64,000 nucleotides of DNA from Escherichia coli. GTDB lineage: Bacteria > Pseudomonadota > Gammaproteobacteria > Enterobacterales > Enterobacteriaceae. The stretch lies in assembly GCF_036507355.1 (NCBI RefSeq), contig NZ_AP027877.1; one strand, given 5' to 3'. A model generated the notes under the pieces. The model was not told where the DNA came from, made no database searches, and worked only from the letters and a program-made list of their open reading frames with translations. This document shows, piece after piece, positions 57,591 to 59,964 of this stretch. A program made the position numbers and the translations under genes. The first letter of the stretch is position 1. The number at the start of each line of letters is the position of its first letter.

Positions 57591-59131
57591 AACACTCAAA
57601 GAAAGAGGTAATTTTAGAATGAAATTATCTGTGATGATTATTAATACACTGCAGAGAAATAAAAAACAATCTGAAGCATGCTCTGAAACATCCTACTCTG
57701 TCACTCTAATGATGGCACCTTGCTCTTCTTATAAAGAAGGGAACAATTAAGAATATTAAATTTTCAAACTTTCATCAACTTCACATCAAGAAATTAAAAA
57801 ATTTAAACATTAATCTAAATAATAAAAACCTGATCACATAATCGGGTACGATTTTATCCGATAACTATAATGCTATAACTCTGGGAAATGGTTGGAATAC
57901 ACCGCTGGGTGCCATCTCTTTTTACGCTGCCCGAGCGAGTAGTAAGTTAAATAATGATACCAGACACGAAGGTACGAGCTATCAGGTCGCCTATAATAAA
58001 TATCTAGTACAAACAGCCACTCGATTTAGCGTGGCCGCCTGGCGTTATGCTTCGCAGGATTACAGGACATTCAGCGACCATCTTTACGAAAATGATAAAC
58101 ACTATCATCAGAGTGATTATGATGATTTTTATGATATTGGCAGAAAAAATAGCCTTTCTGCCAATATTATGCAACCTTTATCCAATAATCTGGGAAATGT
58201 ATCATTAAGTGCGCTTTGGCGGAATTACTGGGGGCGAAGTGGAAATGCTAAAGATTACCAATTCAGTTACTCCAATAACTGGCAACACATTAGTTATACT
58301 TTCTCTGCCAGCCAATCTTATGATGAAAATAATAAAGAAGAGGAGCGTTTTAATCTGTTTATCTCCATTCCTTTCTACTGGGGGGATGATATTGCCAAAA
58401 CACGTCACCAAATTAACTTATCGAATTCGACCTCATTTTCCAAAGATGGCTATTCCTCCAACAATACTGGAATTACTGGCATAGCCGGTGAACATGATCA
58501 GTTAAATTATGGTATATATGTTAATCAGCAACAACAAAATAATGATACCTCGCTTGGTACGAATTTAAGCTGGAGAACTCCCATCGCCATAATAGATGGC
58601 AGCTATAGTCATTCTAAAAACGCCTGGCAAAGTGGTGGAAGTATTAGTAGTGGATTAGTTGTCTGGCCCGGTGGTATTAATATCACTAACCAGTTATCCG
58701 ATACATTTGCAATTCTGGATGCGCCTGGGTTAGAAGGTGCACATATTAATGGACAAAAATACAATCGAACAAACAGCAAAGGCCAGGTTGTTTACGACCT
58801 GATAATACCTCATCGTGAAAACCATCTGGTACTTGATATAGCAAACAGTGAAAGTGAAACAGAATTGCAGGGCAATCGTCAAATTATTGCACCTTACCGT
58901 GGAGCAGTTTCTTATGTGCAGTTTACAACTGACCAACGTAAGCCCTGGTATATACAGGCACTGCGTCCCGATGGTTCGCCATTAACCTTTGGCTATGACG
59001 TACTGGATCTCCAGGAAAATAATATTGGAGTCGTTGGCCAGGGTAGTCGCCTTTTTATTCGCGTAGATGAAATTCCGGTGATGCTGCCAACTTACTGATT
59101 TAGTGTATGATGGTGTTTTTGAGGTGCTCCA

Positions 59132-59407
59132 GTGGCTTCTGTTTCTATCAGCTGTCCCTCCTGTTCAGCTACTGACGGGGTGGTGCGTAACGGCAAAAGC
59201 ACCGCCGGACATCAGCGCTATCTCTGCTCTCACTGCCGTAAAACATGGCAACTGCAGTTCACTTACACCGCTTCTCAACCCGGTACGCACCAGAAAATCA
59301 TTGATATGGCCATGAATGGCGTTGGATGCCGGGCAACAGCCCGCATTATGGGCGTTGGCCTCAACACGATTTTACGTCACTTAAAAAACTCAGGCCGCAG
59401 TCGGTAA
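59132..59407 (+). CDS. insA: IS1 InsA (transposition repressor / N-terminal part of InsAB' transposase)
   Basis: 91-aa product [43 protein letters not shown]... Confidence 0.95.
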
Positions 59408-59829
59408 CCTCGCGCATACAGCCGGGCAGTGACGTCATCGTCTGCGCGGAAATGGACGAACAGTGGGGCTATGTCGGGGCTAAATCGCGCCAGCGCTGGC
59501 TGTTTTACGCGTATGACAGGCTCCGGAAGACGGTTGTTGCGCACGTATTCGGTGAACGCACGATGGCGACGCTGGGGCGTCTTATGAGCCTGCTGTCACC
59601 CTTTGACGTGGTGATATGGATGACGGATGGCTGGCCGCTGTATGAATCCCGCCTGAAGGGAAAGCTGCACGTAATCAGCAAGCGATATACGCAGCGAATT
59701 GAGCGGCATAACCTGAATCTGAGGCAGCACCTGGCACGGCTGGGACGGAAGTCGCTGTCGTTCTCAAAATCGGTGGAGCTGCATGACAAAGTCATCGGGC
59801 ATTATCTGAACATAAAACACTATCAATAA
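59326..59829 (+). CDS. insB: IS1 InsB (transposase catalytic part, expressed by -1 frameshift as InsAB')
   Basis: 167-aa ORF overlapping insA in the -1 frame; ...[44 protein letters not shown]... Confidence 0.93.
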
Positions 59830-59964
59830 GTTGGAGTCATTACCGAAATTCCCACTGGAATAAAAGTTGCTCTCAATGATGAACAGAACTTATTCTGTAC
59901 TATTACTTTTCAACACGTTATCGATGAAAACAAAACATATATATGCCAGTAAAAGGAGTTTACT

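Follow-up and report, generated by a model that had tools for sequence, protein, structure and literature searches.

The interval between rpsT and nhaR in Escherichia coli contains a chaperone-usher fimbrial island, and in the window analysed here (the whole stretch of 64 kb) the usher gene of this island is interrupted by an IS1 element. K-12 MG1655 contains an IS1 element, IS1A (insA1/insB1), in the same nhaR-rpsT interval and in the same orientation. The locus raises the questions of how the element in the window was acquired, whether it is responsible for the sequences missing upstream of it, and whether it shares its origin with IS1A. We consider it highly probable that the element represents a recent, simple insertion into an usher that was already dead, and that it is independent of the insertion in K-12.

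The IS1 element and its target-site duplication

The element, its coding content and its immediate flanks have the following coordinates.

59077..59844, plus strand: complete IS1 element, 768 bp
59077..59099, plus strand: left terminal inverted repeat (IRL) of IS1, GGTGATGCTGCCAACTTACTGAT; pair I1 of the repeat finder
59822..59844, minus strand: right terminal inverted repeat (IRR) of IS1, ATCAATAAGTTGGAGTCATTACC as read on the plus strand; pair I1
59132..59407, plus strand: insA (91 aa), protein identical to InsA of K-12
59326..59829, plus strand: insB' frame (167-aa ORF), Pfam match to DDE_Tnp_IS1 with an E-value of 2.3e-78
59383..59389, plus strand: A6C (AAAAAAC) programmed -1 frameshift motif, IS1 position 307
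59069..59076, no strand: left copy of the target-site duplication, GAAATTCC, 8 bp
59845..59852, no strand: right copy of the target-site duplication, GAAATTCC, 8 bp

The window contains no other IS1 copy. Over its full length, the element aligns with IS1A as annotated in K-12 (NC_000913.3 19796..20563), which is also 768 bp long and identical at 766 of the 768 nucleotides. The two mismatches are located at IS1 positions 444 and 486. The element starts with GGTGATGCTGCC and finishes with GGAGTCATTACC, which form imperfect terminal inverted repeats with complementarity at 18 of the first 23 positions, and both the length of the element and its imperfect repeats of about 23 bp are those of IS1. 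The InsA protein contains the Zn_ribbon_InsA (E 1.3e-21) and HTH_Tnp_IS1 (E 4.7e-31) domains, while InsB' differs from InsB1 of K-12 by one amino acid, R65 in the window and S65 in K-12. As in other members of IS1, insA and insB' are overlapping frames, both of which are intact, and they are accompanied by the A6C motif, where a -1 frameshift fuses InsA to InsB' (PMC12428005). The intact reading frames and ends, together with the recent date of the insertion, suggest that this copy is full-length and apparently functional. The GC content of the element is 53.5%, as compared to 34-36% in the surrounding island.

The junctions of the element read GATGAAATTCC followed by GGTGATG on the left side and CATTACC followed by GAAATTCCCAC on the right side, so that each end of IS1 abuts one copy of GAAATTCC. 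The repeat finder recorded these two copies as family D13, with a spacing of 776. A duplication of 9 bp was rejected because the left copy is preceded by a T and the right copy is followed by a C. Target duplications of both 8 and 9 bp have been documented for IS1 (PMC12428005). The 8-mer is present in a single copy in genomes that have no IS1 at this site, where the sequence reads GTAGATGAAATTCCCACTGG. In EC2641 and O157:H7, the empty site is GTAGATGAAATTCC(C/A)ACTGG, which likewise contains the 8-mer once. Consistently, in a BLAST alignment of the window with O157:H7, the left flank extends to position 7308 of the O157:H7 locus and the right flank begins at position 7301, so that the two flanks overlap by exactly 8 bp.

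To characterize the empty site, the window from which IS1 and one copy of the repeat had been removed was compared with 5,426 complete E. coli genomes. One place accounts for 80% or more of this query in 3,598 of these genomes and, among the matches listed, the internally deleted genomes align with it as one ungapped piece. Near-identical sequences of the island are found in draft data, GCA_047852605.1 and the run SRR31122001, which lack IS1 and align without a gap to 5,736 bp of the IS1-excised window, with one and two mismatches, respectively. Both also encode an identical copy of the 319-aa protein downstream of the usher. Since these near-relatives, which are 99.97-99.98% identical to the window, carry the 8-mer once and in the same place, the element arrived by simple transposition in the recent past and duplicated 8 bp of its target. 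The coordinates of the element and of its flanking repeats in the first-pass annotation were thereby found to be exact to the base, and its reading of a simple insertion is borne out by the gap-free collinearity of the IS1-excised window with IS1-free genomes.

Probes of 250 nt over the two junctions of the IS1 element matched none of the 5,426 complete genomes, and a 32-nt pattern across the left junction had no matches in the GTDB species representatives. The genome from which the window derives is not among the collections searched, and the junctions thus rest on one assembly. The best match among complete RefSeq genomes of E. coli to positions 34000..56000, a segment of 22 kb with core genes such as carB, the cai operon and ileS, is only 99.1% identical, which shows that the source lineage is absent from the 5,426 complete genomes. 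A Shigella origin was considered in view of this modest identity, but the near-identical island sequences in the draft data made it unnecessary. As judged from these comparisons of sequences, the insertion is recent and private to its source lineage. It is in this respect an ordinary finding of a known kind, a private and recent IS1 in a pseudogene.

An usher pseudogene broken by an older deletion

The interrupted gene and the deletion upstream of it are located as follows.

57845..57847, no strand: deletion junction with GGT microhomology (3 bp)
57848..59076, plus strand: part of the usher pseudogene 5' of IS1, equivalent to usher codons from approximately 374 on
59853..59952, plus strand: 3' part of the usher pseudogene, cut off by IS1; last 32 codons and TAA, end of the PapC_C domain

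As it stands, the usher frame enters IRL and terminates with the residues VMLPTY (RVDEIPVMLPTY) and a stop at 59098, and the resulting chimeric usher-IS1 ORF of 355 aa is not on record. Excision in silico of IS1 and one copy of the repeat restores a continuous frame, RVDEIPTGIKVALNDEQNLFCTITFQHVIDENKTYICQ, ending at the stop codon at 59950..59952, just as the first-pass annotation had written it. The restored fragment is 444 aa long, counted from the first in-frame codon past the upstream stop. It matches the Usher domain (PF00577) with an E-value of 2.2e-83 over profile positions 201-549 of 549 and, at residues 371-432, the PapC_C domain (PF13953) with an E-value of 1.7e-9. The fragment thereby contains both the barrel and plug domain and the C-terminal domain that characterize ushers of the FimD/PapC type (PDB 3RFZ, 9BOG). 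Residues 368-816 of FimD align with it (E 3.5e-34), and this alignment includes the C-terminal domain that is split by IS1 and crosses the insertion point at residue 412. The resemblance of the C-terminus to FimD that had been proposed for this gene is therefore supported by both domain matches and alignment. The insertion site corresponds to codon 350 of the remnant usher ORF, or residue 412 of 444 in the restored fragment, within PapC_C.

The interrupted gene shows 97% DNA identity to the intact usher of O157:H7, which has 816 codons (2,451 bp). However, in comparison with complete FimD and PapC ushers, it lacks roughly the first 373 codons, which correspond to the signal peptide, the N-terminal domain and the first part of the barrel, and it thus has neither the chaperone-binding N-terminus nor the full barrel of a complete usher. 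Consistently, the RefSeq orthologs of the remnant are labelled “missing N-terminus”. The window also differs from the FimD and PapC systems in that the usher has no partner chaperone or major subunit.

These losses are explained by a single deletion. In O157:H7, the segment between rpsT and nhaR contains espX1, a gene for a fimbrial subunit, a chaperone gene, the usher gene and a gene for a “fimbrial family protein”. Positions 3635..6076 of this locus (2,442 bp), which hold the genes for the subunit and the chaperone together with about 373 codons from the start of the usher, are absent from both the window and EC2641. The junction of the deletion is identical to the base in the window and in EC2641, which has no IS1. 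A 300-nt probe placed over the junction was covered to at least 80% in 2,424 of the 5,426 complete genomes, and about 1,000 more genomes match the probe as two separate places, which represents the undeleted form. The internally deleted operon is accordingly the commonest state of the locus (2,424/5,426), with the full operon in roughly 1,000 genomes. The distance from the deletion junction to the end of IS1 is 1,229 bp. Because the junction is located this far from the element, and because it is identical in IS1-free strains, IS1 was inserted into an existing pseudogene and did not cause the deletion; the usher was a pseudogene before IS1 arrived, and the deletion is older than IS1. The first-pass annotation was thus right to absolve IS1 of the upstream deletion, whereas its description of the target as an already existing usher gene holds only in part: the gene predates IS1, but it had become a 5'-truncated pseudogene by the time the element was inserted.

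Two other explanations for the arrangement were considered. According to one, the flanking 8-mers are identical by chance and IS1 arrived by some other route, for example by homologous recombination with another IS1 copy or as the end of an inversion or deletion. The duplications generated by IS1 are usually 9 bp, so that 8 bp might seem atypical, and short repeats in two copies are common in the repeat-finder output for this sequence. However, the probability of an identical 8-mer at both of the fixed positions is about 3e-5, as estimated from the base composition of the island, and in IS1-free genomes the flanks are exactly adjacent and overlap by these 8 bp, which is not expected of the end of a rearrangement. 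Furthermore, 8-bp duplications are among those documented for IS1 (PMC12428005), and one is seen in strain 167 in the same island. We give this explanation virtually no credence. The other explanation is that IS1 caused the 2,442-bp deletion of the fimbrial operon. This draws on the known capacity of IS1 to promote adjacent deletions and on the large losses beside the IS1 element of K-12 in the same interval. Yet, the junction at 57845..57847 is not at the end of the element, it recurs in EC2641 and in the 2,424 genomes, none of which has the IS1 of the window, and the 3-bp GGT microhomology is typical of illegitimate recombination. The junction in EC2641 and the count of 2,424 genomes refute a causal role of IS1, to which we assign a negligible probability.

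The preferred history, a transposition into an already inactive usher, is as follows. An older and widespread deletion of 2,442 bp first inactivated the usher of the chaperone-usher island between rpsT/espX1 and nhaR. A full-length IS1 element was later inserted at codon 350 of the usher remnant, inside PapC_C, and a staggered cut followed by repair duplicated the 8-bp target GAAATTCC. The insertion was probably neutral for fimbria assembly, since the subunit, the chaperone and the N-terminus of the usher were already gone. For annotation, this means that the usher sequences to the left and right of IS1 are to be treated as parts of one pseudogene, which the old deletion had broken before IS1 split it again.

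The 2,442-bp deletion begins 45 bp upstream of the subunit gene, and for this reason the upstream region of the operon may still promote transcription that reaches the remnant. The only plausible effect of IS1 that we can suggest is polarity, in that read-through transcription into the gene for the 319-aa fimbrial family protein may have been lost.

Relationship to IS1A of K-12 and to other IS1 copies in the interval

The segment of the window that has been replaced in K-12 is given below.

55951..60786, no strand: stretch that K-12 lacks, with IS1A alone in its place; position 55950 is joined to IRL, and IRR is joined to position 60787

The first-pass annotation placed an IS1 element in the same interval of K-12 with much more of the locus missing, and the alignment confirms this, with both elements in the same orientation. 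IS1A takes the place of positions 55951..59076 and 59845..60786 of the window, which amounts to a loss of about 4.07 kb of non-IS DNA around the element. K-12 is thus without espX1 and the whole usher remnant, and it retains no more than 138 bp from the 3' end of the fimbrial family gene. The sequences flanking IS1A are TTGAGGTA on the left side and AGCAATTAC on the right side, which do not represent a duplication. The element in the window, by contrast, is cleanly inserted, with 8 bp of its target duplicated and both neighbours intact. The K-12 flanks are 98.5-98.6% identical to those of the window.

Junction probes identified the left (rpsT-side) junction of K-12 in 540 genomes and the right (nhaR-side) junction in 445. 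The strains PK8241, Z1323CEC0005 and IAL7250 have the left junction of K-12, but their right junction is at 60698, and the part of the fimbrial family gene that remains in this PK8241 class is 89 bp longer than in K-12. Because the left junction is shared while the right endpoints differ (60698 versus 60787), the K-12 and PK8241 classes suggest stepwise, nested right-hand deletions from one fixed IS1 element. A clean-insertion ancestor of IS1A was not found with probes at each of the K-12-class junctions, which gave near misses only. In J6, IS1 is inserted 3 bp from the left junction of K-12 with a 9-bp duplication of its own; in strain 167 and in NDM strains, the distance to a K-12-class junction is 12-14 bp, and in LP-26-E1-261 it is about 21 bp. 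Insertion and deletion in one step, without a duplication, has been proposed for other IS elements (bioRxiv 10.1101/2024.06.02.596822), and by analogy such an event is a possibility for the origin of the K-12 state.

Could IS1A instead descend from the insertion in the window? This would involve two or three successive IS1-mediated adjacent deletions, to 55950 on the left side and to 60698 and then 60787 on the right side. The two elements share interval and orientation and differ at only 2 of 768 nucleotides, the lack of a target duplication in K-12 is what would be expected after deletions adjacent to both ends, and the right endpoints at 60698 and 60787 are nested on a common left junction (540 genomes for the left junction, 445 for the right). 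However, IS1 copies are near-identical wherever they are located, so the two differences carry little information, and the island receives IS1 repeatedly and at different sites. All 5,426 genomes lack both junctions of the IS1 element in the window. An ancestral insertion shared with K-12 would need a precise loss of IS1 from the relatives that are 99.97-99.98% identical to the window, whereas the K-12 flanks are far more distant. The descent also requires one event more than an insertion at a K-12 junction followed by deletions. We therefore find a common origin very improbable. With both junctions absent from the 5,426 genomes and the site empty in the closest relatives, the event in K-12 is best read, on grounds of parsimony and phylogenetic distance, as independent of the IS1 element in the window. 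The first-pass annotation had left the choice between an independent and a subsequent IS1-mediated deletion in K-12; the former is favoured here, while the latter is made less likely by the lack of shared junctions in the genomes searched and by the near-identical relatives with an empty site.

Other IS1 copies have been inserted into the island. In 64 genomes, an IS1 element in the same orientation is close enough to the site for 80% or more of a 2.8-kb probe to be covered by one place, and the 40 best-scoring of these genomes all align with the probe in more than one piece. Six strains, S1-CAM-01-C, HeN100, W137, LP-26-E1-261, 167 and J6, were examined, and IS1 or a close variant is present in the island of each, with no two at the same position; the sites fall within the usher remnant or the fimbrial family gene, or lie close to rpsT. 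Unlike in the window, none of these copies is located at 59076/59077. The target duplications could be read directly in three of the strains. S1-CAM-01-C has a 9-bp duplication at window position 58737 (TAGAAGGCG), J6 has its 9-bp duplication at the site near the left junction of K-12 (CACATTGAG), and strain 167 has an 8-bp duplication 14 bp inside the right junction of K-12 (CTTTTCAG).

IS1 prefers AT-rich DNA, which fits with repeated insertions into this island. A tentative extension, which we consider possible but rather doubtful, is that the rpsT-nhaR island (34-36% GC) attracts IS1 with unusual strength throughout E. coli and is thus a natural hotspot. In that case, the window would show the initial clean insertion, and IS1A in K-12 and the PK8241 class would stand further along a recurrent pathway that leads from insertion to end-adjacent deletion. 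If true, the locus would offer a natural series for studies of the target choice of IS1, with 8-bp versus 9-bp duplications, and of deletion dynamics.

A literature search identified no paper that describes the history of the nhaR-rpsT locus. Most E. coli contain espX1 and the fimbrial operon, either complete or internally deleted, and the K-12 reference represents a derived, eroded state of the interval. The independent IS1 insertions and nested deletions at this one locus illustrate the IS-driven erosion of horizontally acquired, AT-rich DNA.

Genes adjacent to the usher remnant

The usher remnant is flanked by two intact genes.

56169..57590, plus strand: espX1 (473 aa), intact; RefSeq orthologs are annotated as the type III secretion effector EspX1
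59965..60924, plus strand: intact gene for the downstream “fimbrial family protein” (319 aa), which begins 12 bp past the usher stop

The EspX1 protein has only a sub-threshold Pfam match to the pentapeptide repeat, with 18.8 bits against a cut-off of 38. The espX1 gene is absent from K-12, and several strains have a copy with a frameshift or with an inserted IS2 or IS1. The 319-aa fimbrial family protein has no Pfam match, and its name is taken from the RefSeq annotation of its orthologs. The corresponding gene in O157:H7 strain Z1486 (locus positions 7421..8381) is annotated as frameshifted despite an otherwise complete operon, while the gene is intact in the window, where the operon is internally deleted.
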